Below, piece after piece: positions 3,795 through 63,290 of a DNA stretch of 64,000 nt. The stretch comes from Moorena sp. SIOASIH. Its GTDB lineage: Bacteria > Cyanobacteriota > Cyanobacteriia > Cyanobacteriales > Coleofasciculaceae. The position numbers and the translations under genes are program-made. Every line of letters starts with the position of its first letter. Within the stretch, counting starts at the first letter, position 1. Location of the stretch: positions 741,053 to 805,052 of the forward strand of contig NZ_JAAHIH010000001.1 in the NCBI RefSeq assembly GCF_010671925.1, written 5' to 3'. Below the pieces are notes generated by a model. It ran no database searches and was not told where the DNA came from. It saw only the letters and a list, made by a program, of their open reading frames with translations.

Positions 3795-5129
3795 CTACGC
3801 GAACAACATGTGAAGGTGTTCTAAAAAATACTGACGATATAAATTACAACAGAGTGTGACTTGATTTCTGTGAACACTCACCAAACCCATACTCTGTAAC
3901 TTATAGATACTGATTGGATCTAATTCAACTCCCCTATCTGCTGTAACCACGTGTTTAAGAGTAGTAGCTAAATCAGGATTTTCCCTGAGTACACTTAAGT
4001 GTTGCCGCAAATAGTCACTATAAATTCCCGTAGCAGTAGCTGCTTCAGCCAGTAATTGTTCTAGGCTAATATTCTGATAAGCCAAGTGATAGAGAGCAAG
4101 CTGGACTAATCCCGGATGTCCCCCCACCATATCCATCAGTTTCTCAGCAGCTTCACTATTTGACCAATGTAATCTATAAAGCTGCGCTAACTGCTGGATT
4201 TGCTGTTTGTTAAACTCGGGTAACTTAATCGGTAATCCCACATTAAACGGAGATTGGGAAGTTTCCAGAGCAACATAAATTTCTGTCGAGTAAACCACAA
4301 CAACCCGCAGCTTTCGCCACACCGGTAGTTGTTTAGATTCCTCATGCCAAGAGCGCAATAAGGGTAAAAAATCTTTAGCAGTTTGGGTATGCTCAAACAG
4401 GTGATGAACTTCATCCATTGCCAAAACTAGGGGATGGTCTATTTTTTCTAGGATATGTTCTTGTAAGTAACTCATACAGCTGACCTTACTGCCTAGGTCT
4501 TTATCCCAATAGTCATCCAGTTGGTGGGGAAGCTGGAGTTGGTAACTGACGTTAACACATAACCAGCGCAATAGCCGGTCTAAATTGCTTAAAATGGCGG
4601 TTTCGGCTTGGTCAAAATTGAGGTATACTCTGCGATATTGTTTTTCTCTTGCCTGGTCTAATATTCGCAGCAGCAAAGAGGTTTTTCCTGTCTCTTTTGG
4701 TCCTGTAATCCGGAGCAAACTCCCAGGTTGCTGGATGGCTTGATAGCAAAGCTCTTCAATAGGAGGACGCTTTATATAAAGCTGAGATGGTAGGGGAAGT
4801 GCTCCACTGGGAAATTCAGCAATTTGACGTAGGCATTGACGGCGGTAATATTGCTCAATTATCTCTTGATAGTAGGGAGTAATCGGGGTTGTCTCCAGAG
4901 TGTTCCGGAAGTTGGTCTTGGTGATCGCTTTGCCAAAAATGTCTCCCAGTAATCGCCACAACTTATAGGCAGTCTTTCTGAGGTATTCAGGGCCATAGTG
5001 TGCTTCGATCGCCATATCGCTATAGGTTTTTCCTTCCCAGGCTTGGTGCAGTATCCATTCCTGAAGTGGAGTCAACTTGATTTTCTCAACACTTTTGAGG
5101 ATGTCAAGTACCTGATCAATAGTCATCAC
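3795..5129 (-). CDS. AAA-like-domain ATPase with an N-terminal HTH-like region. Walker A is GPKETGKTSLL.
   Basis: P-loop motif present. Overall layout resembles the cyanobacterial 'AAA-like domain' family (recalled as PF14516). The C-terminal KLQSMGLVSV...LYRQYF motif is shared with the ORF at 44210. Confidence 0.6.
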   Translation of the reverse strand: MMTIDQVLDILKSVEKIKLTPLQEWILHQAWEGKTYSDMAIEAHYGPEYLRKTAYKLWRLLGDIFGKAITKTNFRNTLETTPITPYYQEIIEQYYRRQCLRQIAEFPSGALPLPSQLYIKRPPIEELCYQAIQQPGSLLRITGPKETGKTSLLLRILDQAREKQYRRVYLNFDQAETAILSNLDRLLRWLCVNVSYQLQLPHQLDDYWDKDLGSKVSCMSYLQEHILEKIDHPLVLAMDEVHHLFEHTQTAKDFLPLLRSWHEESKQLPVWRKLRVVVVYSTEIYVALETSQSPFNVGLPIKLPEFNKQQIQQLAQLYRLHWSNSEAAEKLMDMVGGHPGLVQLALYHLAYQNISLEQLLAEAATATGIYSDYLRQHLSVLRENPDLATTLKHVVTADRGVELDPISIYKLQSMGLVSVHRNQVTLCCNLYRQYFLEHLHMLFA

Positions 5130-5744: not shown

Positions 5745-7613
5745 ATGAAAAACCCCTTAATAATTATTTGTATTGATAATGAACCATCAGTTCTCAATAG
5801 CCTGAAAATATCTCTACGTAAGACTCTCGGCCAAGAATATATGATTGAAAATTTGGAAGGGAGTAAAGCGGTTGTAAACTTAGTGGAAGAGTTGCGCAAT
5901 GATGAGTCTGAAGTTGCTTTAGTTTTGGGTGGTGCTGTTATCCCTGATTTAAAAGGGGATGACTTATTAAACATAGCTTATTTTTTCTCTAACCAAACTC
6001 TCAAAATTATGCTGACGGGTGATCTGGATTTGAAAGCTACAGCCAAGGCTATTCGGTATGCAAAGTTATATCGTTACCTAGGGAAGCCTTGTCCATCTGA
6101 AGACCTGAAATTGACAGTCATAGAAGCCATACATAGTTATCTTCTTGAGGAAACACTGAAGGAACAAAATCGCCAACTTCAGGAACTAAATCAGCACTTG
6201 GAAAAAATAATCTGTGATCAAGCAGCACAGATTTCAGAATATACTACAGCACCAGAACAAGCTAATCAAGAGTGGCAGCACCTGAGTGCTATAAACCGTC
6301 AACAAACTGTCCTAGTTGACGAACTGCTAGAGAACCAGTATCAATTGACCCAGTTTCTAGAAAGGATGCCCGTGGGTGTGGCTGTTTTTAATGATAAGGG
6401 GATACTAGAATTCCTCAATTATAAGGCGCGGCAGTTATTAGGCAAGGGAGTCGTGCCATTAACTACAGCTGACCAAATGCCAGAGGTTTATCAACTTTAT
6501 GTTGCCGGAACCAATCAGCTATACTTTGCTGAAAAATTAGTTGCTGTAAAGGCATTAAAAGGTGAAAACGCCACCCTGGATGATCTTGAAATCCACCAAG
6601 GAGACAAAATTATCCCTATAGAAAGTTGGGGAACACCTATCTTTAATGAATTGGGCAACATTGCCTATGCTATCGTAGCCTTTCACGATATCACCCAACG
6701 CAAAAAAGCAGAAGCAGAACACCTACGCTTGATCCAGGAATTCTCGCAAGTCAATCAAGCTTATGAAAGCTTTGTCCCCCATCAGTTTCTCCAGTTATTG
6801 AACAAACCAAGCATTGTCGATGTCCAATTAGGGGATCATGTTCAGCAAGAGATGTCGGTGCTATTTTCCGATATTCGCTCCTTTAGCACCCTATCGGAAA
6901 GTATGACACCCGAGGAAAATTTTGAATTTATCAATACCTATCTTTCTCGTATGGAATCTGCCATCACTGGAAATCATGGCTTTATTGATAAATACATGGG
7001 GGATGGTATTATGGCTCTGTTTAACGAAAGTGCTAATCATGCGGTCAACGCCGGAATTGCTATGCTCAAATCCCTAGCTGACTATAATCAATCTCGGCGA
7101 AGCTCAGGACACCCAGCCATCACCGTTGGGATTGGCATCAATACTGGTTCGTTGATGCTAGGAGCAGTGGGAGGAAAAAATCGGATGGATAGCACTGTCA
7201 TCAGCGATGGGGTCAATTTAGCGTCTCGTTTAGAAGAATTAACCAAACGTTATGGGGTGCCGTTATTAATCACTCACCATACTTATTGGAAGTTAGATAA
7301 TCCCTTAGCGTATGCCATTCGCTTGATTGATCGGGTACCAGTCAAGGGCAAATCCGAAATGGTGACAGTTTATGAAATCTTTGATGCCGATGAACCGCAA
7401 CTGCGAGAGGGTAAGTTAATTACTCGCAGCAAATTTGAACAAGCCTTGGTACTTTATAATCTCCGTTATTTCTCCAAGGCATCAGTTCTGTTTCAGGAAT
7501 GTCTACGCTTGAATCCAGGAGATAGTGTAGCACAAATTTATCTTGGACAATGTCAACTTCATACTCGCCTCTCTGGAGTGACTAAAATCAAGCAACACTT
7601 AAAATATAGTTGA
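5745..7613 (+). CDS. Receiver(REC)-PAS-class III adenylate/guanylate cyclase with a C-terminal TPR-like tail.
   Basis: N-terminal CheY-like fold. Cyclase homology-domain motifs FSDIRSFSTLSE, MGDGIMALF and VNLASRLE are present. A PAS-like segment lies between the two. Confidence 0.8.
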   Translation: MKNPLIIICIDNEPSVLNSLKISLRKTLGQEYMIENLEGSKAVVNLVEELRNDESEVALVLGGAVIPDLKGDDLLNIAYFFSNQTLKIMLTGDLDLKATAKAIRYAKLYRYLGKPCPSEDLKLTVIEAIHSYLLEETLKEQNRQLQELNQHLEKIICDQAAQISEYTTAPEQANQEWQHLSAINRQQTVLVDELLENQYQLTQFLERMPVGVAVFNDKGILEFLNYKARQLLGKGVVPLTTADQMPEVYQLYVAGTNQLYFAEKLVAVKALKGENATLDDLEIHQGDKIIPIESWGTPIFNELGNIAYAIVAFHDITQRKKAEAEHLRLIQEFSQVNQAYESFVPHQFLQLLNKPSIVDVQLGDHVQQEMSVLFSDIRSFSTLSESMTPEENFEFINTYLSRMESAITGNHGFIDKYMGDGIMALFNESANHAVNAGIAMLKSLADYNQSRRSSGHPAITVGIGINTGSLMLGAVGGKNRMDSTVISDGVNLASRLEELTKRYGVPLLITHHTYWKLDNPLAYAIRLIDRVPVKGKSEMVTVYEIFDADEPQLREGKLITRSKFEQALVLYNLRYFSKASVLFQECLRLNPGDSVAQIYLGQCQLHTRLSGVTKIKQHLKYS

Positions 7614-33830: not shown

Positions 33831-34700
33831 ATGAATCGTGATGAATTCCTAAAACGCTACGAAGCCGGTGAAAGAGATTTTTCTGGTGTTAATTTGAAAA
33901 AAGCTAACTTGAAAAGTACTAATATCAAGGGTGTTTGTCTAAATTCTGCGCACTTGAGTAATGCTGATTTAGAGGAAGCCACTTGGGATGATGTGGATCT
34001 AAGTCATGCTAACTTGAGGAATGCTTACCTATATGAAACCACTATCGAAAATTCCAACCTCACTAAGGCTAACTTGAGTCATCTAGTAGCATCTGAATCA
34101 ACCTTGGAAAACTGCGACTTTAGTGGTACTGATCTGAGCTATGCTGATTTATCTGTAATCTATATGGCTGGTAGTAACCTCAGGGATGCCAATTTCAGTT
34201 ATGCTACCTTATGTGAGGTTTACGTAGGTGATTCTGACCTGAGCAATGCTAACCTCAGTTATGCCCGTATGCTAGGGGTTGATGGGTGGAAAAAAGCTGA
34301 CCTGAGTAGTATAAATTTTACTAAAGCTATCTATACATCATGCACTGAGTTTCCGACTGGATTTAACCCATCAAAAGCAGGAGCAATCTTTATTTGTGCA
34401 GAGGCTGACTTAAGCGGTTTGGACTTGAAAAATATCAACCTTGGTTATGAGGAAATGTCTGGCGCTAACCTTAGTCATGCTAATTTGAGTGGTGCAAGAC
34501 TGTATAATAGTGACTTGAGGGGCGCAAACCTAAGTTATGCCAATTTAGAAGGTGTTGACTTTCATGATGCTGATTTGAGTGAGGCTAATTTTAGCCATGC
34601 TAATCTTAAAAAGGCTAAATTAGCTAAGGCTGAATTAAATGATGCCATTTTCTGTAACACTATTATGCCTAATGGTAGGATTAGGAATGATAATTGTTAG
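33831..34700 (+). CDS. Pentapeptide-repeat protein.
   Basis: Runs of A(N/D)LSxANLxGA pentapeptides throughout. Confidence 0.85.
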   Translation: MNRDEFLKRYEAGERDFSGVNLKKANLKSTNIKGVCLNSAHLSNADLEEATWDDVDLSHANLRNAYLYETTIENSNLTKANLSHLVASESTLENCDFSGTDLSYADLSVIYMAGSNLRDANFSYATLCEVYVGDSDLSNANLSYARMLGVDGWKKADLSSINFTKAIYTSCTEFPTGFNPSKAGAIFICAEADLSGLDLKNINLGYEEMSGANLSHANLSGARLYNSDLRGANLSYANLEGVDFHDADLSEANFSHANLKKAKLAKAELNDAIFCNTIMPNGRIRNDNC

Positions 34701-34864: not shown

Positions 34865-35995
34865 TCAAAAGCTACATACTTCCAGGCAATCGAGTATATA
34901 TCTAGCCGCATCTACAAATACCATATCCAGATACTGAAACTGATCCGGATGCAGCTGGGAGCGCAACTCATCCCAAGCCTGTTCATCCTCAATATCTTCA
35001 TGCCTAAATCCTGCCTCCAGCACTGCTGTATACCTGGAATCAATCCCCAGATGCTTAGCCACTATGTGTAAATAGTCCTGCTCAGTAGGGTCAATTTCTC
35101 CATCCGCCGCTGACATATCATAGGCAAAGCACAACAGGAGTAGCTTCTCAGCATCGCTTAGAGGCTTAGTCAAAGTTAACCATTCGGGGCAATTAGACCC
35201 AGTAGGGTTCCGCTGAACTTGCCGAAGCAGAAGTCCGATTAAGAACGGTCCCAATTGACGCAAATCATCCTCTTCGGGAGGCGTTAAGCGGTCAATGGTT
35301 TTTGCCAGCAGCTGTCTTTCTTCTTCTACCACTTGACCATCCGCCAACATCACTTCCAAGGAAATAGTCACCAAGGCTACCAAAAAAATCATGGTTGGTG
35401 TAATATCTAACAGACTCAGTTGCCTTCCCACAAGATGGGACAAGTATTCAACAACTTGCTGATTTACCAGTCGGATACCTAGAGCCTCAAACTGTTCTGG
35501 TTGCAGCTTTGATTGGAACTCTTCCCAAACAGACTGATCTGGGAAGTCCTCACCCTTGAACCAAGCTTCCAGCACCATTGGGTAGCGCGAGTCAATCCCT
35601 AAGGAATTTGAGGCTAGCTGTAAATACTGGCTTTCATTGGGGTCAATCGTCCCATCCACCGCTGACATGGCATAGCAAAAGTTAAGGAGCAAAATTCGCT
35701 CTGACTCAGACAGGGAGGTGGTTAGCTTCAACCACTGCTGAGGATTTTGATAAACCGGATTCTTCTCTAGTCCAGAAAGCAAACCCTGCACGAATTGACG
35801 GACATCCCTCTGGGGGGGGACTAATCGCTCAATGGTTTTCTCTAGTAGCTGCTTCTCTTCGTCCTGTACAACCCCATCAGCATACATGACTCCCATCCCA
35901 AGGGTTACTAGGGCAGCTAAAAACCTCACAGGCGGTGTTATATCGTCTTGAGTGAGGTTTCGTCCGCTTAGGCTAGACAAAAGTTCAATAGTCAT
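34865..35995 (-). CDS. Tandem TerB-like (tellurite-resistance TerB/DjlA-N fold) domain protein.
   Basis: Two internally duplicated halves, each with a hydrophobic segment followed by ADGxV/xxEExxLL and MSA(V/A)DG(T/E)IDP(N/T)E(S/Q)(Q/D)YL motifs. Confidence 0.55.
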   Translation of the reverse strand: MTIELLSSLSGRNLTQDDITPPVRFLAALVTLGMGVMYADGVVQDEEKQLLEKTIERLVPPQRDVRQFVQGLLSGLEKNPVYQNPQQWLKLTTSLSESERILLLNFCYAMSAVDGTIDPNESQYLQLASNSLGIDSRYPMVLEAWFKGEDFPDQSVWEEFQSKLQPEQFEALGIRLVNQQVVEYLSHLVGRQLSLLDITPTMIFLVALVTISLEVMLADGQVVEEERQLLAKTIDRLTPPEEDDLRQLGPFLIGLLLRQVQRNPTGSNCPEWLTLTKPLSDAEKLLLLCFAYDMSAADGEIDPTEQDYLHIVAKHLGIDSRYTAVLEAGFRHEDIEDEQAWDELRSQLHPDQFQYLDMVFVDAARYILDCLEVCSF

Positions 35996-36120: not shown

Positions 36121-37389
36121 ATGAGTTTAACAATGAACTACACTTACCGTATTTATCCTTCGGCTGCTCAACAAGAATTAATGTTGAGATGGTTAGAAAC
36201 TTGTAGACGACTGTATAACCGTTGCCTACGAGACTTAAAAGACTGGATCAATAGCAGAAAGTGTCAAGTAGATCGTTGCTCCATTGACCGGGAATATATC
36301 ATGTCTGCTGATATTCCTTTCCCGGGTTACATGGAACAGAAGAGACAGTTAACCCAATGGAAGAAAACCGACCCTCAACTCAAGGCTGTACATTCTCAGG
36401 TGACACAAGATGTGGTTAAGAGATTGCATAACTCTTGGGAAGCATTTAAACAGAGAGGGCATGGTTTCCCAAGGTTTAAAAAGTACGGTCGTTATCAATC
36501 CTTTTTGTTTCCTCAGTTTCAGAAGTCACCCTTTGTCGGCAATCAAATTAAACTCCCGATGATTGGGTGGGTCAAGATTAACTTACATCGATATATCCCG
36601 ACGGGCTTCAGGGTTAAAGGGGTCAGAGTGGTTTCAAGATGTCGAGGGACAAAATGGTTTGTTGTTATTACTATCCAAGCCGATGTATCTGTTCCTGATA
36701 CTCCGTCCTACGGTAGAGCTATTGGGGTGGATGTTGGGTTAAATGACTTTTTGGCAACATCAGATGGCTTGAGAATTCCTAGATCCAAGTTTTTTGTAGA
36801 CTTACAAAGCGAGCTTAAATTGCTGCAACGTAGAGCATCCAGAAAACAGAAAGGGTCTAAAAATTGGGAGAAAGCACAAATTAAAGTTTCACGATTACAC
36901 CACAAAATTGACAACACTCGCTCCGATTGGCAATTCAAAGTCGCTCATGCTCTTTGTGATCAAGCCGACTCTATTTTTGTAGAAGATATTGATTACCGAG
37001 TCATGGCAAAAGGGTTTCTTGGGAAGCATTCCCTAGATGCAAGTTTTGGTCAATTCAGAGAGTTATTGAAATGGGTCTGTTGGAAAAGAGGGAAATTTTT
37101 GGCCACAGTAGACCATCGGGGAACCTCTAAACAATGTCCTAAATGTGGGGCCGAGTGGGATAACAACCTGTCAATCCGTTGGCATACTTGCACAGAATGT
37201 GGATATTCCAATAACCGAGATGTTGCTAGCGCAGAAGTGATTCGTAATCGTGGAATTGAAAAGTACCCAAGGACAATTGGGGAAAGGAAACCGCCTGCTA
37301 TTGGCGTACTGTCGGGGATTTTCAATCTAGATAAGTGCTACGCAGGAATTCCCAATTGTGAGATTGGGAAGCCCGCGCTGTACTCGTAG
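36121..37389 (+). CDS. tnpB: TnpB (OrfB_IS605) RNA-guided endonuclease-family protein with an intact RuvC triad and Zn ribbon.
   Basis: Candidate RuvC triad residues sit in GVDVGL (Asp), FVEDIDY (Glu) and NRDVASAEVIRNRG (Asp). Zn ribbon is CPKCG...CTECG. The N-terminus YTYRIYPSAAQ is TnpB-typical. Confidence 0.85.
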   Translation: MSLTMNYTYRIYPSAAQQELMLRWLETCRRLYNRCLRDLKDWINSRKCQVDRCSIDREYIMSADIPFPGYMEQKRQLTQWKKTDPQLKAVHSQVTQDVVKRLHNSWEAFKQRGHGFPRFKKYGRYQSFLFPQFQKSPFVGNQIKLPMIGWVKINLHRYIPTGFRVKGVRVVSRCRGTKWFVVITIQADVSVPDTPSYGRAIGVDVGLNDFLATSDGLRIPRSKFFVDLQSELKLLQRRASRKQKGSKNWEKAQIKVSRLHHKIDNTRSDWQFKVAHALCDQADSIFVEDIDYRVMAKGFLGKHSLDASFGQFRELLKWVCWKRGKFLATVDHRGTSKQCPKCGAEWDNNLSIRWHTCTECGYSNNRDVASAEVIRNRGIEKYPRTIGERKPPAIGVLSGIFNLDKCYAGIPNCEIGKPALYS

Positions 37390-44209: not shown

Positions 44210-45403
44210 ATGACCTCTAAGCAGGATAAACCTGAGGTGGCTAAAATCCTCGAACCATTCAAACCCGCATTGGCGGAACATCTGATCAACCCTGATGTTA
44301 TCTTAGACGAGGTACTGGCATGGACTGGCTCTCAGCCTTTTTTGACCCAGAAGCTTTGTCAAGTTATCCTTGACTCTAAATCTCCCATCCCTGTTGGTGA
44401 GGAAGCTCTCAAAGTCGAAGAACTCGTCAAAACTCACTTCGTTGAAAATTGGGAAACTCAGGAAGCCGCTGAACTTCTGCAAGATATTCGTAGTTTCTTG
44501 CTCGAAGAACAATTCCTGCGGCTGTATCAGAAAATTTTGCAGGGAGCCATGATGGCAAATGACAGTTGGGAACAAAAAGTCTTGCTCAACTCCGGTGTGG
44601 TGATTAACCAGGGGGGAAATTTAAAAGTTTCTAACCGTATTTATGAGGCTGTTTTTAATCCCAGCTGGGTAGCTCAAGAGTTAGCACAGTTGACCAGTAC
44701 AGACTATTGGCTGGCATCTGAGTTGACCACAGACGCTACTGATCAAGCCATCGCCATGGCTTTTCCTAACCTACCAATTACCCCAGTTACTCAAGACCAA
44801 GATCTAACAACTGACGAGCCCAAACACCCAGATCTAACAACTGATGAGCCCAAACACCCAGATCTGACAACTGACGAGCCCAACCAATCAACTGTAGTAC
44901 CTTTAGAGCCAGACCAAGCCACAACCTTGGCTACCTCATCAGCTAGCAGAATCCCATCACCCATTAGTTTTTGGGGTGGCTTGATCGCCTTGTTTCTAGT
45001 CATTACCTTTGGTGTATTTCAGTGTACTAGTGCTAGAAGAGCAGACGATCAACTAAAAAACCTTGCTCCTCAGGACATATGCAGACGCCAATTTACTACC
45101 AGAAAAGAACAAATAGAGCAACTTAGAAAGATAAAGAGTCAAAATAAGGCTTTTCCCAAGCTATGTCAGTCAATGTTAGATCAATTGCAGTTTTCCTATG
45201 CTATAGAAGAGCTCGCTAGTCAAGGTGAATTCAAGCAAGCTACTATAAATCTTTGTCAAGTATCAGAGCGTTACTACCAGTTTAAACAAAAATCTCTTCC
45301 ACGTTTTTTCCGTCGATGGGATAGGAATAATGAGAATTATGCTAATTGGTTGAAAAACTATCTAATAAAATATGATTGTCCAGCTGCTAAATATTTGGGG
45401 TAA
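44210..45403 (+). CDS. Hypothetical membrane-anchored protein. Its N-terminal ~160 aa resemble the C-terminal module of AAA-like-domain proteins. It also has three DLTTDEPKHP tandem decapeptides and one TM helix.
   Basis: VLLNSGVVINQGGNLKVSNRIYEAVF is comparable to KLQSMGLVSVHRNQVTLCCNLYRQYF in the ORF at 3795-5129. A 30-nt x3 direct repeat lies at 44797-44886. The hydrophobic stretch is FWGGLIALFLVITFGVF. Confidence 0.5.
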   Translation: MTSKQDKPEVAKILEPFKPALAEHLINPDVILDEVLAWTGSQPFLTQKLCQVILDSKSPIPVGEEALKVEELVKTHFVENWETQEAAELLQDIRSFLLEEQFLRLYQKILQGAMMANDSWEQKVLLNSGVVINQGGNLKVSNRIYEAVFNPSWVAQELAQLTSTDYWLASELTTDATDQAIAMAFPNLPITPVTQDQDLTTDEPKHPDLTTDEPKHPDLTTDEPNQSTVVPLEPDQATTLATSSASRIPSPISFWGGLIALFLVITFGVFQCTSARRADDQLKNLAPQDICRRQFTTRKEQIEQLRKIKSQNKAFPKLCQSMLDQLQFSYAIEELASQGEFKQATINLCQVSERYYQFKQKSLPRFFRRWDRNNENYANWLKNYLIKYDCPAAKYLG

Positions 45404-49383: not shown

Positions 49384-49726
49384 CAGTTCTGATAACCCGG
49401 GTAGCGTTTACCAAATCCACCTCCCCCCAGTCTATCCTGTGTTGTTGAGATACCCAACTCGGCAGAGGGGATCAAGTCTAAAGTCTGAAGTCTGAAGTCT
49501 GAAGTTGTCAGTGGTCAGTGTAACTCCTGGTTGGGTCGCAAGTTTTTAGTTAACCATGTCTTGATGCAGAGCGCGAGTGGGGGAATTCCCCGTGAGGCCA
49601 CTGCATCGCGCGCCTCAGCCATCGATCACCCCATTTCATCCTTCATACTTCATCCTTCATCCTTCTTATTTGATATTTCATTCTTCACACGGGAAATATC
49701 CCAGAGGAAGACCGTGATTGTTCACC

Positions 49727-49942
49727 TTAACCTTCTTTATTAATATAGGGTAGCAAAGCCAAGAATCTTGCTCGCTTAATGGCTGTGGTTAACTTTCGTT
49801 GTTGTTGAGTCGTTAGATTAGTAATGCGGCGCGGTAGGATTTTTCCCCGTTCAGTGATGAACTTGCGCAGCAACTCAACATCTTTATAGTCGATCGGTTC
49901 ATCGGGTTTGATCGGAGAGAGACGTTTACGAAAGTAAGTCAT
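49727..49942 (-). CDS. rpsR: 30S ribosomal protein S18.
   Basis: Translation contains [42 protein letters not shown]. Confidence 0.92.
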
Positions 49943-50084
49943 GATTCGTTTTGATTGGTTATTGGTTATTTTGGTTATGGGTTACTGGTTACTGATTATA
50001 GTCATTTGTTCTTTGTTCCTTGTTCTTTGTCAATAGTCCATTTTCCATTAAAAAATTCAATTCACAAATGACCAAGGACCAAAT

Positions 50085-50279
50085 CTACTTGATTTCTTTG
50101 TGAATTGTGTGCTTGTTGCAATGGGGGCAAAATTTCTTCAGTTCCAGACGTGATGATGTGTTACGGCGATTCTTCCTAGTGGTATAGCGGGAAACACCAG
50201 CCGAACGCTTATTGGAGTTACTGCGACATTCCGTACATTCTAGGGTAATAACGATTCGGACACCTTTCTTACTTGCCAT
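50085..50279 (-). CDS. rpmG: 50S ribosomal protein L33.
   Basis: Translation contains [34 protein letters not shown]...[12 protein letters not shown]. Confidence 0.92.
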
Positions 50280-50352
50280 AGTTTTTTTTCTAAGAACTCA
50301 AATATTACAATTAAACACAATTTACTATTATCTCATGGGATGCCCCAGTCTA

Positions 50353-50568
50353 TCAAGTAGATCCAAAATTTCTCAAGTCTCGGGAAAAACCTCCTATTGT
50401 TCCAGACCCAAAACGACTCTCGGCAGACAGGGAGATGTCGGGATCTAGGTTCTGGAACTCTGTTTCAGTCAGATAACCACCAATCGTAAACGCACTGGCT
50501 CCAAAGGGAGTAAAAGCTAGTCCTAGTGCTGACACTCCCAAACTTAATAGTAAATTACGAGTCATCAT
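50353..50568 (-). CDS. Hypothetical small secreted protein, 71 aa.
   Basis: N-terminal signal-peptide-like segment MMTRNLLLSLGVSALGLAFTPFGASA. Confidence 0.3.
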   Translation of the reverse strand: MMTRNLLLSLGVSALGLAFTPFGASAFTIGGYLTETEFQNLDPDISLSAESRFGSGTIGGFSRDLRNFGST

Positions 50569-51166
50569 TATTTCTCTTGCCTATATGGAGTATTGCTTGT
50601 TATTGCAGTAACAACTGATCAAAGTATCCAGACTGAGTGTTTGCGTTCCCGTAGCGGCTCTGAAAGAGCATCGCGTTTGCTTTCTATCGCGTAGCGTGAC
50701 CTTTTGGGCAAAGCCCGACGCTGCGCGAACGGTCAATCCCACAGCTGCTCCGTTGAAGTATCCGATTCAGCAACTATAGCGCTAATTAAAGATTAAGCGG
50801 CTCATAACTATAGCGCTAGTTTATATAACTTCAGTCCAATTAATTCACTATCGAAAATTTCAACAATTTTGGAGATGATAGGATGCTCCTGATCAGCCGC
50901 TTTGGATCAGCATTCCCTGTAGCCCTGGTTAATCTGAATTAACAAAACTTTACATCAATGGCTACCACCTATAGGTGTATAATAACTAAAATTATTCTTT
51001 CGACAAGGAATAATAGTCTCAAGCCATTATCAATCAAACTGATTAGCTGTTACTAGGTTAATCAAAACTAGGTTAATTAATACTAGGTTAATCCATGGCA
51101 AGAAATTGATTAACCTTAAGTGCCTAAGTAAAATCACCCGACCCAGGAGCAGGAGAAACCATTGCC

Positions 51167-54100
51167 ATGGCATTAGATGTCTTGAAACGCTATAACACTC
51201 AGTTATGGTTAGCCCTATGCTTAGCCATTAGTGGAGCGTACGCATTTCCCATAAACCAAGCTAATGCTCAGATTACTCCTGATACCACTTTGCCCACGGG
51301 CGAAAGGTCGGAGCTAGACCTGGGCTCTGGTGAGGTAAATGGGAAAATTGTTGATCTAATTAAAGGAGGAGCAATCCGGGATATCAACTTGTTCCACAGT
51401 TTTTTAGAATTTAATGTTGAAAATGGGCAAAGGGTTTATTTTGCTAATCCAGCTGGGATTGAAAATATTCTGTCTCGGGTAACTGGTGCTAATCCCTCTA
51501 ATATTCTTGGAACCTTGGGTGTCGATGGTGGAGCGAATTTGTTCTTGATTAATCCCAATGGGATTTTCTTTGGGGATAAAGCCAAGCTGGATGTATCTGG
51601 TTCATTTGTGGGCACCACTGCTGATGGGATTGGCTTTGGCAATCAAGGAGTGTTTAGTGCTTCTAATCCAGAGCCTCCTTCGCCATTGCTGACGGTTAAT
51701 CCTAATGTGTTTTTCTTTAATCAAATTCCCGGTAATATTACCAGTCAAGCTAACTTGGAGAAGCTGGCGGTTGATAACCTATTGTTACTTGGTGGTGATG
51801 TTGAGGTTAAAGATAGTAAGATTAGCACCAATCAAGGTGGGAATATTCTGTTAGCGGGATTGGGCGCACCAGGACAAGTAGCATTAACTAGAGACGGTGA
51901 CAAGCTGGGTTTAGGTTTTCCGGATGGCGTCAATAAAGGGAATGTTGTAATTACCAATAGCGCTATAGAAACTTTCGTAGCCAAAGATAGTAATGTTGAT
52001 GGTGGTGAGATTAGGATTATTGCTGATTCTTTGGAAGTAGAAAACTCCGAAAATAAGACAGACCGGGGAATTTTTACTAAAACTGAGAATAATGGTCAGA
52101 AAAGTGGTGATATTAGTATCAGTGCTGATAACTCAGTATTAATTAAGTCTACTGCTAGAGAAAAACGCCAGGGAATCTTTACTACAACAGAGCAAGAAGG
52201 TGGAGAAGGCGGAAAAATCACTATCGATACTGGCTCGTTGACAGTAGAGACGGCTGAAATAGAGCAGGGAATCTTCACCACAACTAAGGGAAATGGTCAG
52301 AAAGGGGGTGATATTATCATCACCGCTGATGACTCAGTTTCTATTATTGCTTCTAATACCGGAAATCAGCATGGAATCTTTACCTTAACAACTAATGCAA
52401 ACGAAGGTGAACTAAAAGGTGGACCAGGAGGAAGCATTCAAATTACTGCTGGCTCCCTGGTGATCGAATCTAGGAGACAAAACCCGGGAATTTCGGCAAT
52501 AACAGGGGGAGATGGTGATAGCGGCAGCATTACCATAGATGTGACTGGGGATGTACTCCTGAAAAGGCAGGGTACCATTAAAACAGAACAACGTAATTCC
52601 AAAACAAAGGGCAGTGTCGGGAATATTTCATTAAAGGTCAATGGCAATGTTACCCTGGCTGATTACAGCAGAATTAAGAGCCAAAATAGCGGTAAGGGAA
52701 CTGGGGGAAAAGTTACGATCTTGGCTGGTGGAGCAGTTGAGGTTAAATACGATAGCAAAATTGAGAGTATCGCTCAAAAAGAAGCTGAAGGAAATAGCGG
52801 GAGCATTGAGATCGAAGCTGATTCCCTATTGCTTGATGCTCGCAAAGATCCCAGCAATCCTGAATCGGAAAGAGGTCTAGTCCAAATTACGACTAAGACC
52901 GAGTCAAAAACTACCGGTGATGGCGGTGACATAAACATCCGTGTTGGGTCCCTGACGATGATTGGACCAAATAAATCCGGTTCTAGTGGTATAACTGCTA
53001 ATACATCAGGAGATGGAAGCGCGGGCAAGATCACAATCATAGTTGAAGGAGACTTCATTATGAAAGATCGAGCCAAAATTGAAGCTAAATCCGAAAAGGG
53101 AGCTACAGGCAATGGTAACGACATAATAATTGAAGCTGGATCACTTTTCTTAAGCAATAGAAGCTTTATCACTACTGAGGCTAGGCCGAACAGTAAGGGA
53201 AATCCGGGAAATATCACGATAACGGCTAAGGATAAGATTGAGCTTAACAACAGCGACATCGAAGCTCTGGTACGTGCTGGAGCGGGAAACCCAGAAACAG
53301 CCAAAAACACTCCAGGAGGCGTTGGCAACATTACCATTACAGCTCGCTCTTTATCTCTTAAAAATGGAGGTAAATTAGAAGCTTTTACTCAGGGCAAACT
53401 CCCAGCAGGTAATATTACAGTCAATGCCACCGATTTTGTGGAAGTTTCTGGAAAAAACGCCAATCGCATAGTTACCGAAACTAGACTAGGAGCTCAGAGT
53501 GTTGGGGACAATGAGCCTAAGGGAGGAAAGATAAATATCACAACTGGTAAATTAACCGTATCAAATGATTCATTTATAAGCACTCGCAGCATCGGTAAAT
53601 TTCAAGGCGGTGAAATCGAAATCAAGGCTAAGGAAGTAGAGGTCACGGAAGGGGGAAAAATTATTTCTACTGCCTTGAATAGTAGTCCCTTTGAGATAGT
53701 AGGCATCACGGAAGGGGGAGAACTTGAGACTAAACCCTTAAGTGAGGATAATGGAGATCCTGGCAATGCTGGCACAATTACGATTAATGCTTCAGAGCAA
53801 GTTATTGTCAGTGGTAGTGCTCCCGACTCCTCCTCAGAACGTATTGCTATTATCAATAATATTCTGGAATCACAAAAGAGGCAACTGGATAACGAAGATA
53901 ATAAACTAAACAGAGAAAACCGTAAACTCATCAAAAAGCTGGATGAACTCCAGGAAAACCAGAATCAACTAACGGAAGCAGACATCAAAAACCTGGAAGA
54001 AGAGATAGAAGAAATTGAGCAAAAAATCCAAGACATAGAAATAAGAAAAAATGAGATAAAACTGGAGATATCCAATGCAGTACTTGTGAGATTTGATGAT

Positions 54101-55174
54101 GACCCTGATAGCATGATTTCGGTGGCAGCCAGGGGAGGTAGCCAGGCGGGAGACTTGACAGTAACAACCGAAAACCTAACTGTCGAAGATGGAACCAAAA
54201 TCTCAGTAAGCGCTGTTCCATTAACTCAGAATGGTTTTCCAGAAACCGATGTGGATGAGAGCGAGTTAGGAGTAGCTGGCACACTAAGCATTAAGGCTGA
54301 GTCTCTAACCCTAGACAACGGCCAACTTGTAGCTGCTACTGGCAAACAAACCAACAACGAACAAGCAGCAACTATCGAAATCAATGTACCGGGAGTGATT
54401 ATACTCGATAACAACAGCCTAATTTTGGCTAGCGCTATAGGTGATGCCAATGGTGGAAATATCGACATTTCTGGTGGAGTATTAGTAGCGCTGCCTCTAA
54501 CTAATGATGACAAAGGTAGCGATATATTTGCTAATGCTCAGCAAGGGGATGGTGGAAAAATTAACATCACCCTGCAAGGCTTATTCAATATGAAGGTACT
54601 CGAAGATACCAGTGCCTTTATCGACTCATCTGGAAATATAATCGAATCCTTAGCTTTTGAGAATAATGATAGTGAAATAGCAGCTCTGAGCTTGAGCAGT
54701 GGTGAATCTGGGACTGTGACCAGGGATATTACCGGCTCAGCACAGGATCCTGAGAACTTACCAACATCACTAGTTGACCCTTCAGCATTAATTGTTGCCA
54801 ACTGTGCCAGTAGTGGAAAAGCAGCGGTAGATGAACTGGGTGAATTCATTATTACTGGACGAGGTGGCTTACCCCCGAGTCCCCTAGACCCAATGAATAG
54901 CCAGTCTGTATGGGTAGATTTGAGAATCCTTGATCCTCAACAAGAGAACATCGAAGAAGCTACGTCTACTCCTACCCCTGAGGTCAGTTACTTGCCCATG
55001 AGAGGGAAACGCCGCACTGCCGAGACTCCTACTCCTGCTCGTCCGAAGAAAATTGTGGAAGCTCAGGGTTGGACTGTTGGGGAGGATGGTACAATTATCC
55101 TGACGGCTCAACCGAATCATGTTACTCCTAAGAGTAATTGGTATATTCCTAGGTCTTGTGGTAGCAAGGGTTGA
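51167..55174 (+). CDS. Two-partner-secretion (TPS, filamentous-haemagglutinin N-terminal) domain exoprotein with a parallel beta-helix repeat body and an internal coiled-coil segment. 1335 aa.
   Basis: Signal peptide present. TPS domain reads GKIVDLIKGGAIRDINLFHSFLEFNV...NILSRVTGANPSNILGTL...ANLFLINPNGIFFG. Beta-helix units GxIxITA...L recur dozens of times. A coiled coil spans aa ~900-960 (ESQKRQLDNEDNKLNRENRKLIKKLDELQENQNQL...). Confidence 0.85.
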   Translation: MALDVLKRYNTQLWLALCLAISGAYAFPINQANAQITPDTTLPTGERSELDLGSGEVNGKIVDLIKGGAIRDINLFHSFLEFNVENGQRVYFANPAGIENILSRVTGANPSNILGTLGVDGGANLFLINPNGIFFGDKAKLDVSGSFVGTTADGIGFGNQGVFSASNPEPPSPLLTVNPNVFFFNQIPGNITSQANLEKLAVDNLLLLGGDVEVKDSKISTNQGGNILLAGLGAPGQVALTRDGDKLGLGFPDGVNKGNVVITNSAIETFVAKDSNVDGGEIRIIADSLEVENSENKTDRGIFTKTENNGQKSGDISISADNSVLIKSTAREKRQGIFTTTEQEGGEGGKITIDTGSLTVETAEIEQGIFTTTKGNGQKGGDIIITADDSVSIIASNTGNQHGIFTLTTNANEGELKGGPGGSIQITAGSLVIESRRQNPGISAITGGDGDSGSITIDVTGDVLLKRQGTIKTEQRNSKTKGSVGNISLKVNGNVTLADYSRIKSQNSGKGTGGKVTILAGGAVEVKYDSKIESIAQKEAEGNSGSIEIEADSLLLDARKDPSNPESERGLVQITTKTESKTTGDGGDINIRVGSLTMIGPNKSGSSGITANTSGDGSAGKITIIVEGDFIMKDRAKIEAKSEKGATGNGNDIIIEAGSLFLSNRSFITTEARPNSKGNPGNITITAKDKIELNNSDIEALVRAGAGNPETAKNTPGGVGNITITARSLSLKNGGKLEAFTQGKLPAGNITVNATDFVEVSGKNANRIVTETRLGAQSVGDNEPKGGKINITTGKLTVSNDSFISTRSIGKFQGGEIEIKAKEVEVTEGGKIISTALNSSPFEIVGITEGGELETKPLSEDNGDPGNAGTITINASEQVIVSGSAPDSSSERIAIINNILESQKRQLDNEDNKLNRENRKLIKKLDELQENQNQLTEADIKNLEEEIEEIEQKIQDIEIRKNEIKLEISNAVLVRFDDDPDSMISVAARGGSQAGDLTVTTENLTVEDGTKISVSAVPLTQNGFPETDVDESELGVAGTLSIKAESLTLDNGQLVAATGKQTNNEQAATIEINVPGVIILDNNSLILASAIGDANGGNIDISGGVLVALPLTNDDKGSDIFANAQQGDGGKINITLQGLFNMKVLEDTSAFIDSSGNIIESLAFENNDSEIAALSLSSGESGTVTRDITGSAQDPENLPTSLVDPSALIVANCASSGKAAVDELGEFIITGRGGLPPSPLDPMNSQSVWVDLRILDPQQENIEEATSTPTPEVSYLPMRGKRRTAETPTPARPKKIVEAQGWTVGEDGTIILTAQPNHVTPKSNWYIPRSCGSKG

Positions 55175-55608
55175 AGCAGTTGACCAAAAATTTTGGGTTT
55201 CAAGCCCCGTCCTTCGTTCGACGGCTTTTAAGTAAAGTGTGATAGAATAAACATGTAGCCTAGTACAGGCAGGATTCGTCGGTACTGCCAATTTCAAACA
55301 ACGACGTAAAGCGATACTAGTACACGAGGAGCGTGCATACCTCGCCAAAACCCATGGATCTGCCACAGATACCGAAACCCCAGTAAAATAACCTTTTAAA
55401 ACTAAACGTACCGTGGGGCACACGGGAACGGGGGAGACCCAACGCTTAGGGAGATAAGCCCACGCTCGTTTAGTTAAATTAGGCTCGATATGCGCGTTTT
55501 TAAACGGGTATTTGGCTTAAGTACTGCCTTTGCTGGATAACTAATTTTAAGGCGTGTCGTAGAACTAAGAATCCCCGCTCTTATAGGGCGGGGAGTGTCA
55601 AAGTGATA

Positions 55609-55759
55609 CACGCTATGTATGCGATCGCGTGGGTGCAGTATTAGGACTTACGCAAATCCCTCAATTTAACGCTACCTGTAGGGTGGGCAAGGTTTTGCCC
55701 ACCCTACCCATGGATTATGTGCGTAAGTCCTGAGTATATGCGATCGCATACATAGCGTG
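55609..55759. repeat. ~150-nt nested palindrome with three concentric stems. The outer arms carry HIP1 GCGATCGC.
   Basis: Three stem pairs: CACGCTATGTATGCGATCGC with GCGATCGCATACATAGCGTG; AGGACTTACGCA with TGCGTAAGTCCT; GTAGGGTGGGCAA-GGTT-TTGCCCACCCTAC. Confidence 0.85.
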
Positions 55760-55911
55760 TATGATGTTAGTCTAGTTATCCTGGTAGTGCAGCCAATATG
55801 CCTGCACTACGGTTCACAACTGATTTACAATTGCTATAGTGATTGTTGCGATTTTTGAAACCCTTGGACTTGGATTCACCTTGGATTTGAGATAAGGGCT
55901 AATAATTCGGT

Positions 55912-56526
55912 ATGATAGACGGTTTAGCAAGATTCCGATACAGGACTATTACATATAGTTGCTGTGTAAGGTGCAGATTTGTTTCCAAATGCCTATTGAT
56001 TCTGGTCGGCTTACTGAGCTGCTGGTATCTACTGGGAACACCATCAGCATTAGCAAGTTTCGATGATGACAGCTATGATGGTAATATTTTTGCTCTGTAT
56101 GCTGGGAATGGCTCTATAGTCCCACCACGAATTACCTTAGAAGATTCTTTGCGCAGGAAAAAGCCAGCTTTGTTGGTGTTCTACGTAGATGACAGTAGGG
56201 ATTGCAAGCTATATTCTGTCACTATCTCTAAGTTACAGGGGCCTTATGGTAGGGCCGCGAGTTTTATTCCAGTCAACATCGACACTTTGTTACCCGAGGC
56301 TACCTATACACCGACAGAAGCGGGATACTACTACCAAGATTTAATTCCCCAGACAGTACTGATTGACCAAAAGGCAGAGGTAGTACTCAATGAAATTGGA
56401 CAAGTTGCTTATGAACAGATAGATGATGTGTTTCGGGAAGTGTTTAACTTACTGCCCCGTTCAGAATCTGTAGAGTTAAAGCTGCGCACTGTCAATGATA
56501 TTAATGCTCAGTTAACATCAGAGTGA
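55912..56526 (+). CDS. Hypothetical membrane-anchored protein, possibly a thioredoxin-like fold without CxxC.
   Basis: N-terminal hydrophobic anchor. No catalytic motif seen. The family assignment is tentative. Confidence 0.4.
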   Translation: MIDGLARFRYRTITYSCCVRCRFVSKCLLILVGLLSCWYLLGTPSALASFDDDSYDGNIFALYAGNGSIVPPRITLEDSLRRKKPALLVFYVDDSRDCKLYSVTISKLQGPYGRAASFIPVNIDTLLPEATYTPTEAGYYYQDLIPQTVLIDQKAEVVLNEIGQVAYEQIDDVFREVFNLLPRSESVELKLRTVNDINAQLTSE

Positions 56527-56681
56527 TTTAATTTGGCTACTGGTTAGACATCCATCCGATGAAACTCCCACAACTTAACATGAAGACAATTGTTTTAGTC
56601 ATGAGTGAACTGCAATTGCCGTTTACCCTATTTTTTGGTCACGTTTACGGGTTAAGCTATTTGTAAGTACAGTTAACATCC

Positions 56682-57296
56682 GTGCTGATGTCCAAGGTTT
56701 ACAGCACACAGGAGCTAATCAAAATTTTGGCTCAAGAGCGTCGTTCGTGCATGAATGGGCAACGTCTTAATCTGGCAGCTTCGGTGTCTGGTAACCCTGT
56801 GATTGATCGCTTTCTGAAACCGGAGGGAATTCAAAAGTTCAGTGCTTATAACGACTTTAAAGCCGCAGTTCACAGCTACCAACGGCAACACCAAGTTTCA
56901 GGCATTATTTGGCGGGAACTGACTATGAAAGGAAAGACTCTACGTTATCCTGCTATTGACGAGCAGTTAGCCGCCCTAGAGAGTGACCTGAAAATCCTGA
57001 AAGCTGCCAAAGCTGACCTCTTAGAGTTTTGGCATAGAGGCATCCAAGGTATGGACTTATACCTAAGTATTAATTTTGGTAGAGACTATCAAAAAATTAT
57101 GCCCAATGATGTACAAGAGGTCGCCCATAAAACGGAATGGGCAAATCTCTATGAATATAAGAATTACAACTTTTGGGAAATTATATTGCAGCTAGGTTGG
57201 GGGAAACCTGAGGAAGCATCCTATAAACGGGGATGGCCGACATCAGGAAGTGAGTACATTCATGCAGTTAATCCAGGCAAGCGCCCAATTTGTTGA
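56682..57296 (+). CDS. Hypothetical protein, 204 aa.
   Basis: ORF only. Confidence 0.4.
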   Translation: MLMSKVYSTQELIKILAQERRSCMNGQRLNLAASVSGNPVIDRFLKPEGIQKFSAYNDFKAAVHSYQRQHQVSGIIWRELTMKGKTLRYPAIDEQLAALESDLKILKAAKADLLEFWHRGIQGMDLYLSINFGRDYQKIMPNDVQEVAHKTEWANLYEYKNYNFWEIILQLGWGKPEEASYKRGWPTSGSEYIHAVNPGKRPIC

Positions 57297-57367
57297 CCGC
57301 TATCGCCAGGTCGATGGGTTGTGGGGTGCATAAAGCAGTATTATAAATAAACGAGGAGCGGTCAAAC

Positions 57368-57601: not shown

Positions 57602-57674
57602 TTGGGAAACTATGAATTGTGAAGGATGAAGTGTGAAGGATGAGTTTTCATAATTCATCCTTCATCCTTTGGGA

Positions 57675-59894: not shown

Positions 59895-60147
59895 GGTTAG
59901 AAGGTTATTTGGTTGAAAGTTATTTGGTTGTTTCCCTTGGGCGTCCCTTGTAGGGTAGGTTGAAGATTAGAGCCTTAACAACTCAAATCTGGATGTATAA
60001 CCAGCTAACTTTCAACCAGCTAACCTTCAACCAGCTAACCTTCAACCAGCTAACCTTGGCCAAAAGGCCACGCGTGCGCGTTCAACCAGCTAACCTTCAA
60101 CCAGCTAACCTTCAACCAGCTAACCTTCAACCAGCTAACCTTCAACC
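59895..60147. repeat. Composite repeat: (GGTTATTTGGTTGAA)n, then (CCAGCTAACCTTCAA)n, then the core GGCCAAAAGGCCACGCGTGCGCGTTC (60057-60086), then (CCAGCTAACCTTCAA)n. It sits immediately upstream of fmt.
   Basis: Read directly from the sequence. It is the inverse orientation of the copy at 39155-39245. Confidence 0.9.
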
Positions 60148-61559: not shown

Positions 61560-63290
61560 CGCTACAGTTGAATGGTATCGCAGGCTGTGGGCTGACTATC
61601 TAGCCCAACAGAATTCTACATAGAATTGTCCGGTTAAGTACAACATACTGCCGCTCTTCTTGAAGACTGGATTGATCAACGAAGTGATTAACCGGAGTTG
61701 ATATTACCCATAGTGACTACTCCCACATCAAATCAAAGATTATGATGTGGGCTTCTCAGATTTACAAATGAGACTTGCTGCTCGACGGCATCTTGTGCCA
61801 ATTTACCACAGCCATTGAGCGGCAGTCCAACCGCCAATAATCCACGATTTAAAATGTTGATGCCACTGTTCCAGTCCCTGTCAATTTTGACCTTACAACT
61901 GGAACAGTGATGAACGCGATTACTTAAACTTTTTTCAACTAATGAGCCACAATTAGAACACTCAATACTTGTTCCCCGTGGATTAACTTCCTGGACTAAC
62001 AAACCGCGTCTTACCGCTACTGCTTGTAATATCTCCAGGAATGCGCCCCAGGCTGCATCATGTATTGATTTAGCTAGTTTAGTTCTTGCGAGTCCTTTGA
62101 TATTTAAATTTTCGTGAGCATAATGGTCGTATTTACTGCATAACCAATGAGCAACTTGATAATGAAATTCTTTTCGGCAACGGGTTAAATGAAGATGCAA
62201 TAAAGCCACTTTCTTTTTGGCTTTTTCCCAGTTTTTAGACCCCTTGACACGGCGCGACATTACTTGTTGAGCTAAAGCCAATTTGTTTTGAGCCTTACGA
62301 TAAAACTGAGGAATAGGGATAGCTTCACCGTCTGAGGTGGTTAAAAATTTTTCTAAGCCAACGTCGATACCGACAGCAGATCTAACCGAATCCACAGGTA
62401 ACAGCTCAGGTACGGTATCATCTTTCATGGAAATGCAACAATACCAACCATTAGCCTTTTTGACGACAGTACACTGTTTAAGAGTAAATCCATCTGGTAT
62501 TGGTCTATGCATGACCACAGGTATTTGACCAATGCGACTGAGCAATAGAAAGCCATCTTTTAGATGCGCCCCCGCACGCGGGCTGTTCACACGTGGAAAC
62601 ACGAATGACCTTAATTGACCTTGTTTCTTGAAGCGAGGTCTTCCCCCGCGTAACCCATGCTTCACCGGCTTCCGCCATCTATCCCATGCTTTGTTGAGCC
62701 GTTGTAGGTTAACCTGCTGAGTTTCTGCGTAGATTTGTTTGTAATCAGGGAATAGCCGTTTAGTTTCCTTGAGAGCTGCCTGTTGGGTGTAATAGTTGAC
62801 CGCTTCTGGAATAACACCTATCGGCTCACTAATCAAGCTACATCTATCAATCGGTGAGCGAGTCCGATGGAGCCAATCAAGTCGTTGCCCTAGAGCATAG
62901 TTCCAGTGACGACGCAACAATTCGAGCCACCTTTCCATGATGGCTATCTGTTCGGGACTTGGTTTGATTCTGTAGCAGTACGTTAATATCACTATGCTAT
63001 TGTACCACTTACGTTCGCACCTCAAGCAGCGTCGGCTCTGCCGAAAGCGTGGCCGTAGGCCAATCGCGCAGGGTGACCTGCATATCAATCTTCTGTTTAG
63101 AACTTCCAGACGCTGTCGGGCAATTCCCCGGAGACGAAACCTTAGACAGGCTCGCCTTTATAAGCGACAGTCTGTGAGTCATAAGTTTAAGTTATATGAA
63201 ATAAGGCGAGCCTGTCTTACGGTAACTTCGTTCCCCGTTAAATGGGAGATTATAACGGGAGACCCCTTGCCCGTTTAGTTGGGTAATTAT
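61560..63290 (-). mobile_element. Second IS200/IS605-family TnpB-only element. The left end carries a subterminal hairpin at ~63142-63220. Boundaries are approximate.
   Basis: TnpB ORF plus a 15-bp inverted repeat AGACAGGCTCGCCTT/AAGGCGAGCCTGTCT upstream of the ORF. Confidence 0.5.
61733..62992 (-). CDS. tnpB: TnpB (OrfB_IS605)-family protein with an intact RuvC triad. The likely GTG start gives M/V-ILTYCYRIKPSPEQ; the ORF-track start at 63088 is probably an extension.
   Basis: Candidate RuvC triad residues sit in AVGIDVGL (Asp), AHENLNIKG (Glu) and DRDWNSGINILNRG (Asp). Zn ribbon is CSNCG...CSSCK. Confidence 0.8.
   Translation of the reverse strand: MILTYCYRIKPSPEQIAIMERWLELLRRHWNYALGQRLDWLHRTRSPIDRCSLISEPIGVIPEAVNYYTQQAALKETKRLFPDYKQIYAETQQVNLQRLNKAWDRWRKPVKHGLRGGRPRFKKQGQLRSFVFPRVNSPRAGAHLKDGFLLLSRIGQIPVVMHRPIPDGFTLKQCTVVKKANGWYCCISMKDDTVPELLPVDSVRSAVGIDVGLEKFLTTSDGEAIPIPQFYRKAQNKLALAQQVMSRRVKGSKNWEKAKKKVALLHLHLTRCRKEFHYQVAHWLCSKYDHYAHENLNIKGLARTKLAKSIHDAAWGAFLEILQAVAVRRGLLVQEVNPRGTSIECSNCGSLVEKSLSNRVHHCSSCKVKIDRDWNSGINILNRGLLAVGLPLNGCGKLAQDAVEQQVSFVNLRSPHHNL

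Follow-up and report, generated by a model that had tools for sequence, protein, structure and literature searches.

The stretch of DNA analysed here, hereafter the window, comprises 64,000 nucleotides of a contig of the cyanobacterium Moorena sp. SIOASIH (NZ_JAAHIH010000001.1) and carries a gene for a TpsA protein, i.e. the secreted member of a two-partner secretion (TPS) pair in which TpsB is the transporter. The coordinates of this gene and of the features discussed below are collected in Table 1. Its database record belongs to a contig of 1,717,335 bp and its product is already annotated as filamentous-haemagglutinin-type. The Sec signal peptide, the TPS domain with an NPNG-type motif, the beta-helical passenger and a TpsB in the genome that together identify a TpsA are all present; the protein is intact and belongs to a large family of cyanobacterial surface fibres that are secreted and built as beta-helices, and we rate the gene as an unremarkable representative of an uncharacterised form of two-partner secretion.

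Table 1. Features of the tpsA gene and its immediate surroundings (positions are those of the window; AF2, AlphaFold2; aa, amino acid residues; pLDDT, predicted local distance difference test; TRF, Tandem Repeats Finder)
Feature	Position	Strand	Basis and remarks
Candidate operator/promoter element	51051..51116	+	Three direct TACTAGGTTAATC copies with 15-nt spacing (51051-51093) and an inverted copy (51105-51116); repeat search and TRF
TpsA gene	51167..55174	+	ATG start, 1335 aa plus stop; identical to NEO35430.1, Moorena sp. SIOASIH
Sec signal peptide, aa 1-34	51167..51268	+	Basic n-region, hydrophobic core LWLALCLAISGAYAF, A-N-A before Q35; read by eye
TPS domain, aa 34-282	51266..52012	+	PF05860, TIGR01901
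Beta-helix shaft part 1, aa 283-885	52013..53821	+	AF2 model mf0acbfd2909e, all-beta
Variable cassette, about aa 779-1000, includes the helical hairpin	53500..54166	+	blastn against locus L010, protein alignment, mosaic identity profile
Helical hairpin (predicted two-helix coiled coil), aa 886-930 and 937-973	53822..54085	+	AF2 model m55974c4e679e, pLDDT 85-93
Beta-helix shaft part 2, aa 983-1175	54113..54691	+	AF2, pLDDT mostly >90
Conserved family tail, aa 1190-1335 (146 aa)	54734..55171	+	phmmer; predicted mostly disordered
Cys1213	54803..54805	+	First of the only two cysteines of the mature protein; without variation across alignments A2 and A3
Tail motif 1, TGRGGLPP, aa 1230-1237	54854..54877	+	Columns T1230 to P1236 invariant in a 16-sequence alignment, near-invariant in another
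Tail motif 2, EAQGW...G...LTA, aa 1298-1314	55058..55108	+	Invariant E1298 to W1302, G1308, L1312 to A1314
Cys1331, five residues from the C-terminus	55157..55159	+	Second cysteine of the mature protein
Terminator-like hairpin	55207..55224	+	33 nt past the stop codon; consensus scan only, weak evidence

At the predicted mature N-terminus Q35, I36 and D39 are invariant in an alignment of 16 sequences, and the signal peptide would be cleaved after A34, ahead of Q35. A preceding interpretation of the same DNA, made without database searches (the sequence-only reading), had recognised a TPS domain from the motifs ANPSNILG and NPNGIFFG followed by a beta-helical body, and both assignments were borne out. 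The motifs map to residues 108-115 and 128-135, the Pfam match to PF05860 covers model positions 1-250 of 252 (E=2.5e-43, 149 bits against a cut-off of 33.5), and the NCBIfam model TIGR01901 (NPXG haemagglutination domain) matches residues 76-152 (E=5.5e-27). An AlphaFold2 model of residues 34-900, built with 54 homologues, is all-beta with a mean pLDDT of 86.5 and a predicted template-modelling score of 0.85. Its best PDB matches in a Foldseek search were TpsA proteins exclusively: EtpA (E=9e-11), HxuA (E=1e-8), filamentous haemagglutinin (FHA, 1rwr), HMW1 (2odl) and HpmA. Searching the PDB by sequence with the whole protein returned no match, even at E<=10.

The coiled coil that the same reading had placed inside the beta-helix at about residues 900-960 is also present, and is slightly longer than proposed. 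A second AlphaFold2 model, spanning residues 860-1335, comprises this helical hairpin, more beta-helix and the C-terminal tail. Foldseek with this model retrieved generic antiparallel helical hairpins only (e.g. MacA and ING4), none of them significant, and the two helices are therefore read as an antiparallel hairpin; Pfam on the hairpin alone gave only sub-threshold generic coiled-coil families. By the criterion of a stretch free of glycine and proline, nine proteins among the 120 best homologues have an insert of this type, and all nine are from Moorena; P0020 can be added by alignment. The inserts are charge-rich, vary from 52 to 112 residues and are 35-43% identical to that of the window protein. 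To our knowledge, no described TpsA has such a helical hairpin insert. We would describe it as a helical projection of the shaft that is specific to its lineage and evolves fast, a variable cassette confined to Moorena, and the simplest reading of its role is that of a surface-exposed variable determinant.

The C-terminus, which had been singled out for its lack of resemblance to a known toxin or CdiA C-terminus, indeed has no such resemblance: the tail alone matches nothing in Pfam, it matches nothing in the PDB even with a profile at E<=10, and it has no VENN motif. It is not, however, peculiar to this protein. A phmmer search of 1.84 billion proteins (E<=1e-3) found the tail in 2,489 representative clusters. 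In every case it occupied the extreme C-terminus, and wherever the source is named it is a cyanobacterium. These alignments indicate that the tail is a family signature rather than an oddity of the window protein. With 2,938 full-length matches among 8,000 scored candidates, the proteins appear to form a multigene family confined to cyanobacteria, as far as named sources go; it is common in filamentous cyanobacteria, bloom-formers, mat-formers and symbionts included, and homologues are present in Nostoc punctiforme and Anabaena PCC 7120. Some sources label tail-bearing proteins as 'S-layer family protein'. A TPS domain was present in 7 of 10 sampled full-length tail matches, most of the others being fragments, and the possibility that the tail is a TPS-independent module was rejected, as matches devoid of this domain were mostly N-terminally truncated metagenome fragments. 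Two candidates for tail domains suggested by Pfam matches in some homologues, DUF5791 (PF19104) and DUF2594 (PF10769), proved spurious, with matches in the central repeats and no significant stretch.

Within the tail, the first motif can be written in the wider form F-x-x-TGRGGLP-x-x-P (residues 1227-1239) and is separated from the second by a variable proline-rich linker, the motif starts lying 38-77 residues apart in different homologues. The tail is modelled with pLDDT <50 except for a small hairpin at residues 1301-1313, the region of the second motif containing the only predicted strands. Both cysteines of the mature protein are in the tail and bracket the two motifs, and the same bracket was found in all 67 homologues that have both motifs, 60 of which have no other cysteine past residue 45. 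The protein might also be read as a CdiA-like contact-dependent inhibition toxin, whose last 110 residues would be a new toxin domain. Such a toxin would show a long beta-helix behind its TPS domain and a C-terminus without a match to any known family, as this protein does; CdiA toxin ends are polymorphic, however, whereas this C-terminus is conserved across genera and modelled as disordered, there is no VENN or pre-toxin motif, and Pfam finds neither Fil_haemagg nor PT-VENN in the protein. The check for a small immunity-like ORF (open reading frame) downstream that the sequence-only reading had proposed was also negative: positions 55175-55911 hold only ORFs of <=45 residues, and the next genes, an slr1796-type thylakoid factor and conserved hypotheticals, are found at the orthologous locus as well. 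In the absence of a pre-toxin motif, a variable end and an immunity gene, the toxin reading was rejected, and we regard it as scarcely credible.

The statement that no TpsB gene lies within 4 kb upstream or 9 kb downstream of the tpsA gene can be extended to the entire 64 kb. No TpsB or CHAT gene was retrieved from the window when a Moorena TpsB and two CHAT proteins served as tblastn queries (best E=0.1; best E=6 for the Moorena TpsB query), and Pfam detected no ShlB or POTRA domain in the 20 larger window ORFs scanned. The orphan status deduced from this does not hold at the genome level. A TpsB of 654 residues, NEO34880.1 (P0243), is encoded on the same 1,717,335-bp contig beside a paralogue of the window protein, NEO34885.1 (P0013), from which it is five accession numbers away. 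P0243 falls in the 90%-identity cluster of P0127, a protein with POTRA_2, ShlB and Omp85 domains that is 93% identical to the TpsB of M. producens 3L. Since the RNase II (NEO35426) and the TpsA (NEO35430) of the window are neighbours, accessions run along the contig order, and the TpsB gene would accordingly lie some 550 genes from the window tpsA, a distance estimated from this order. The window protein and P0013 are 86% identical in the TPS domain and 85.5% identical in the tail, with only 59% identity in the body; conserved ends around a divergent middle would be the pattern expected of paralogues sharing one export route. The M. producens 3L homologue P0010, which is 68% identical overall and has the hairpin, is followed at 3.4 kb downstream by a POTRA_2/ShlB/Omp85 gene, and this in turn by a TPR-CHAT gene (TPR, tetratricopeptide repeat) and a second CHAT gene. 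According to a review (PMC5422565), certain TpsB proteins export several different TpsA proteins. We are confident that the window protein is a TpsA and that it leaves through a TpsB whose gene lies elsewhere, and the similarities of its ends to those of P0013 make the distant NEO34880.1 the most likely transporter to export it in trans.

The separation of the two partners is in fact the rule in the cyanobacterial family. We scanned one genome per species and obtained 80 cyanobacterial loci (L012-L091), of which 43 have at least 8 kb on both sides. Because TpsB was found within 10 kb in only 9 of these 43 fully flanked loci, its absence from the neighbourhood is normal, and not the oddity that had been implied. 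Of the two things that the sequence-only reading had named as refuting it when found together, a tpsB directly adjacent and a conserved cyanobacterial TPS tail at the C-terminus, the tail was found and the adjacent tpsB was not. Another Moorena copy, at locus L009, is likewise without a nearby TpsB, and M. producens JHB (L011, 10001-20503) has tandem TpsA paralogues of 1388 and 1205 residues with TnpB-like and resolvase genes between them. The commonest neighbour of the cyanobacterial tpsA genes, above TpsB, is a gene for a caspase-like TPR-CHAT protein (e.g. 13109-15715 in L019 and 15529-18228 in L053): one lies nearby in 26 of the fully flanked loci, directly downstream and on the same strand in 13, and six loci have both TpsB and TPR-CHAT. 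CHAT proteases are best known from HetF and from the CRISPR-associated Craspase. All 12 TPR-CHAT proteins inspected begin with a basic and then hydrophobic N-terminus, which as a sequence feature suggests export or membrane anchoring. We found no description in the literature of the cyanobacterial TPS family, its tail (EAQGW, GRGGLP) or its linkage to CHAT. The only functional hint comes from a phage-resistant mutant of Nostoc 7120 with a mutation in a protein with an FHA N-terminal domain (PMC10811720), hinting that the fibres of the family matter for phage adsorption.

The surroundings of the gene retain traces of its history. Positions 43001-50393 of the window, with the genes for Amt, RNase II, S18 and L33, are 95-98% identical to M. 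producens 3L; beyond about 50393, just upstream of the window tpsA, this synteny is lost, and 3L has no TpsA at that place. Similarity to the TpsA gene of the loci L001 and L002 begins at 51122. The same arrangement as in the window, i.e. L33, TpsA and the same three downstream ORFs, is found in Moorena sp. SIO4A5 (L010), with which the window is collinear in blastn over 49000-57611 at 90-98% identity, the exceptions being the variable cassette and a short gap (50393-50698). In the same-locus orthologue of SIO4A5, window residues 779-1000 are replaced by a shorter, unrelated stretch of 89 residues. An identity profile in steps of 300 nt shows the window gene to be mostly closest to this orthologue and residues 801-900 to be closest instead to TpsB-linked paralogues of other strains; the gene is thus a mosaic. 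The TPS domain is 96% identical to that of the orthologue P0002, and the ratio of non-synonymous to synonymous substitutions (dN/dS) against the orthologue is 0.15 in this domain and 0.56-0.74 in the body. These comparisons indicate that the gene is maintained and that its shaft evolves quickly.

The repeat element built on TACTAGGTTAATC lies about 50-115 nt upstream of the ATG. The same element precedes the orthologue in L010 and the second TpsA copy of M. producens JHB in L011, where it appears with the same AGGTTAAT repeat as in the window; it is partly present in L009 and absent before the TpsB-linked copies in L001 and L011. The window tpsA is a dispersed paralogue whose upstream region is its own, and the distribution of the element over several dispersed copies and not TpsB-linked ones suggests a separate regulatory class. 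One could still imagine that such a dispersed copy is silent or decaying and serves mainly as a reservoir of cassettes for recombination into a TpsB-linked expression locus, as its position at a synteny break against 3L, its mosaic structure, with residues 801-900 resembling other-locus paralogues and residues 779-1000 wholly unlike the same-locus orthologue, and the TnpB genes nearby would allow. We hold this to be improbable, given that the frame is intact over 1335 residues with signal peptide, TPS domain and tail, that the upstream element is common to other full-length copies, and that the locus is kept in a second species. The dN/dS of the TPS domain and the shared arrangement in SIO4A5 are rather those of a functional gene.

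Our favoured reading, which we consider reasonably probable as a whole, is that the gene product is a beta-helical surface fibre (TpsA, type Vb), exported by Sec, dependent on TpsB and served in trans by NEO34880.1, with a tail that forms a cysteine loop and acts both as a periplasmic stopper and as a site for TPR-CHAT proteins. The protein would be exported by Sec, lose its signal peptide after A34 and dock with its TPS domain on the POTRA domains of the distant TpsB. The beta-helix would then fold outside the cell, with the hairpin, whose two helices have about 45 and 37 residues, projecting from its side, and the disordered C-terminal tail would remain in the periplasm, tethering the fibre. 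There, a disulfide between Cys1213 and Cys1331 would close a loop enclosing both tail motifs. This loop might be a stopper comparable to the CdrA 'cysteine hook' and also a docking or cleavage site for periplasmic TPR-CHAT cysteine proteases, leading to release or remodelling of the fibre. The analysis establishes the family, the fold, the TpsB gene elsewhere along the contig, the conserved tail with its pair of cysteines and the CHAT neighbours; that secretion occurs in trans, that the disulfide forms, that the tail is retained in the periplasm and cleaved by CHAT proteases, and that the fibre is adhesive or otherwise active at the surface, is what we infer. The mechanism that joins tail and CHAT is the tentative part of the scheme, to which we give less than even chances.

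A different function for the tail would be to leave the cell with the rest of the protein and to work outside, as an anchor to the sheath, the S-layer or the outer membrane or as a sorting signal read by another machine, the role of TPR-CHAT being then unrelated or regulatory. The annotation of some tail-bearing proteins as S-layer family members would agree with this, as would the short predicted beta-hairpin, which could add to another sheet, and the 14 of the 43 loci with neither TpsB nor CHAT nearby. In TpsA proteins of known topology (FhaB and CdrA), however, the C-terminal end is held in the periplasm; a conserved pair of cysteines around a disordered stretch of an otherwise cysteine-free protein is what one would sooner expect of a stopper than of a binding domain, and the tail hardly occurs outside proteins with a TPS domain. 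An extracellular tail is therefore unlikely in our view.

Several points weigh against the favoured reading. The 14 loci just mentioned make the neighbourhood link a statistical one, and TPR-CHAT genes are not confirmed for SIOASIH itself: none lies in the window, and no SIOASIH member is among the 15 cluster members listed. The use of the distant TpsB is deduced from TPS-domain similarity and accession order, and other TpsB genes may exist. The tail may owe its low pLDDT to a fold adopted only together with a partner, and the tail dN/dS of 0.74 against the orthologue, calculated from few substitutions, is uninformative. All support is computational, the disulfide and the periplasmic location of the tail being predictions and a CHAT cut at TGR/GG a guess.

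Taken alone, the window gene matters little, as the features for which it was flagged are normal for its family. It is the conserved two-cysteine tail together with the recurrent exported CHAT neighbour that provides a concrete, testable model of how such fibres could be kept on the cell surface and shed from it. The logic of CdrA/LapG and FhaB would thereby extend to a new protease class, and CHAT proteases would gain a periplasmic substrate. It is tempting to speculate, doubtful as this must be called, on a cyanobacterial three-part system of TpsA, TpsB and periplasmic TPR-CHAT, in which the Cys-bracketed tail would block the transporter, with cleavage at an invariant motif, e.g. TGR/GGLP, releasing or remodelling the fibre, and in which dispersed paralogues would share one transporter and exchange cassettes, the hairpin included. 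If this were true, cassette exchange would perhaps be driven by phages, grazers or kin recognition.

Other features of the window deserve mention in their own right. The minus-strand gene at 30681..33320 encodes an 879-residue homologue of the eukaryotic Major Vault Protein, with Vault repeats, the MVP shoulder and Vault_2/3/4 domains (E down to 4.5e-68), annotated by NCBI as 'colicin uptake protein' (NEO35415.1); a pentapeptide-repeat protein (33831..34700) and a TerB-domain protein (34865..35995) are encoded nearby. Genes of the TnpB/IS605 OrfB type, with OrfB_IS605 and Cas12f1-like TNB domains, lie at 36121..37389 (plus strand) and 61733..63088 (minus strand), and related copies stand beside the TpsA genes in L010 and L011; in M. 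producens 3L (L003) they lie between RNase II and Amt. A 15-nt tandem array of AACCAGCTAACCTTC with 9.3 copies occupies 59999..60147, between an OmpA-like gene and fmt, and arrays about 80% identical to it occur at several other Moorena loci. The spacer between RNase II and S18 contains the heptanucleotide repeats AAGTCTG (4.6 copies, 49474..49505) and TTCATAC (7.6 copies, 49635..49687). Two plus-strand ORFs of 397 residues (44210..45403) and 204 residues (56682..57296) have no Pfam or NCBIfam match and are conserved in Moorena, with counterparts of similar size and position (397 residues in L003-L008 and 202 residues in L010). Finally, an AAA_35 ATPase gene on the minus strand (3795..5129, E=1.4e-144) adjoins the plus-strand gene of a 622-residue protein (5745..7613) with an adenylate/guanylate cyclase domain and a weak match to response-regulator receivers.

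Among the TPS systems of known architecture, CdiA shares with the window protein the TPS domain, the beta-helix and the large size and is set apart by its pre-toxin motif, polymorphic toxin end and immunity gene. EtpA of enterotoxigenic E. coli and HxuA of Haemophilus, both solved at full length, are the best structural matches to residues 34-900; sequence identity is only 12-14%, however, and neither is matched by the hairpin-and-tail model. The likeness to FhaB of Bordetella (FhaB/FhaC) extends over the signal peptide, the TPS domain with its NPNG-type motif and the beta-helix shaft, and the fold search matched FHA itself. In FhaB a proline-rich region precedes a conserved extreme C-terminus that stays periplasmic, a layout that the window tail, with its first motif, proline-rich linker and second motif, appears to repeat in miniature. 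On the other hand, FhaB has a large C-terminal prodomain (preproprotein of ~370 kDa against ~250 kDa for mature FHA) and a globular mature C-terminal domain, whereas the window tail is only 146 residues long; the window protein has no Fil_haemagg repeats by Pfam, and fhaB and fhaC are adjacent whereas the window tpsA is far from tpsB. CdrA of Pseudomonas aeruginosa (CdrA/CdrB) carries a C-terminal retention module whose 'cysteine hook' holds it in the TpsB pore until the periplasmic cysteine protease LapG cuts at TAAG and releases it. It is likewise a TpsA fibre, and the window family pairs a two-cysteine C-terminal tail with genes for exported cysteine proteases of the CHAT type. The tail motifs are TGRGGLP and EAQGW, with no TAAG in the window tail; the associated proteases are caspase-like TPR-CHAT proteins instead of LapG, and no link to LapD or cyclic di-GMP was seen. 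The window tail showed no sequence similarity to any solved or Pfam-described module, and its retention and cleavage are putative. By analogy, then, the window protein would work most like CdrA or FhaB, from which it would differ in its tail motifs, in the family of the associated protease and in the dispersed organisation of its genes.

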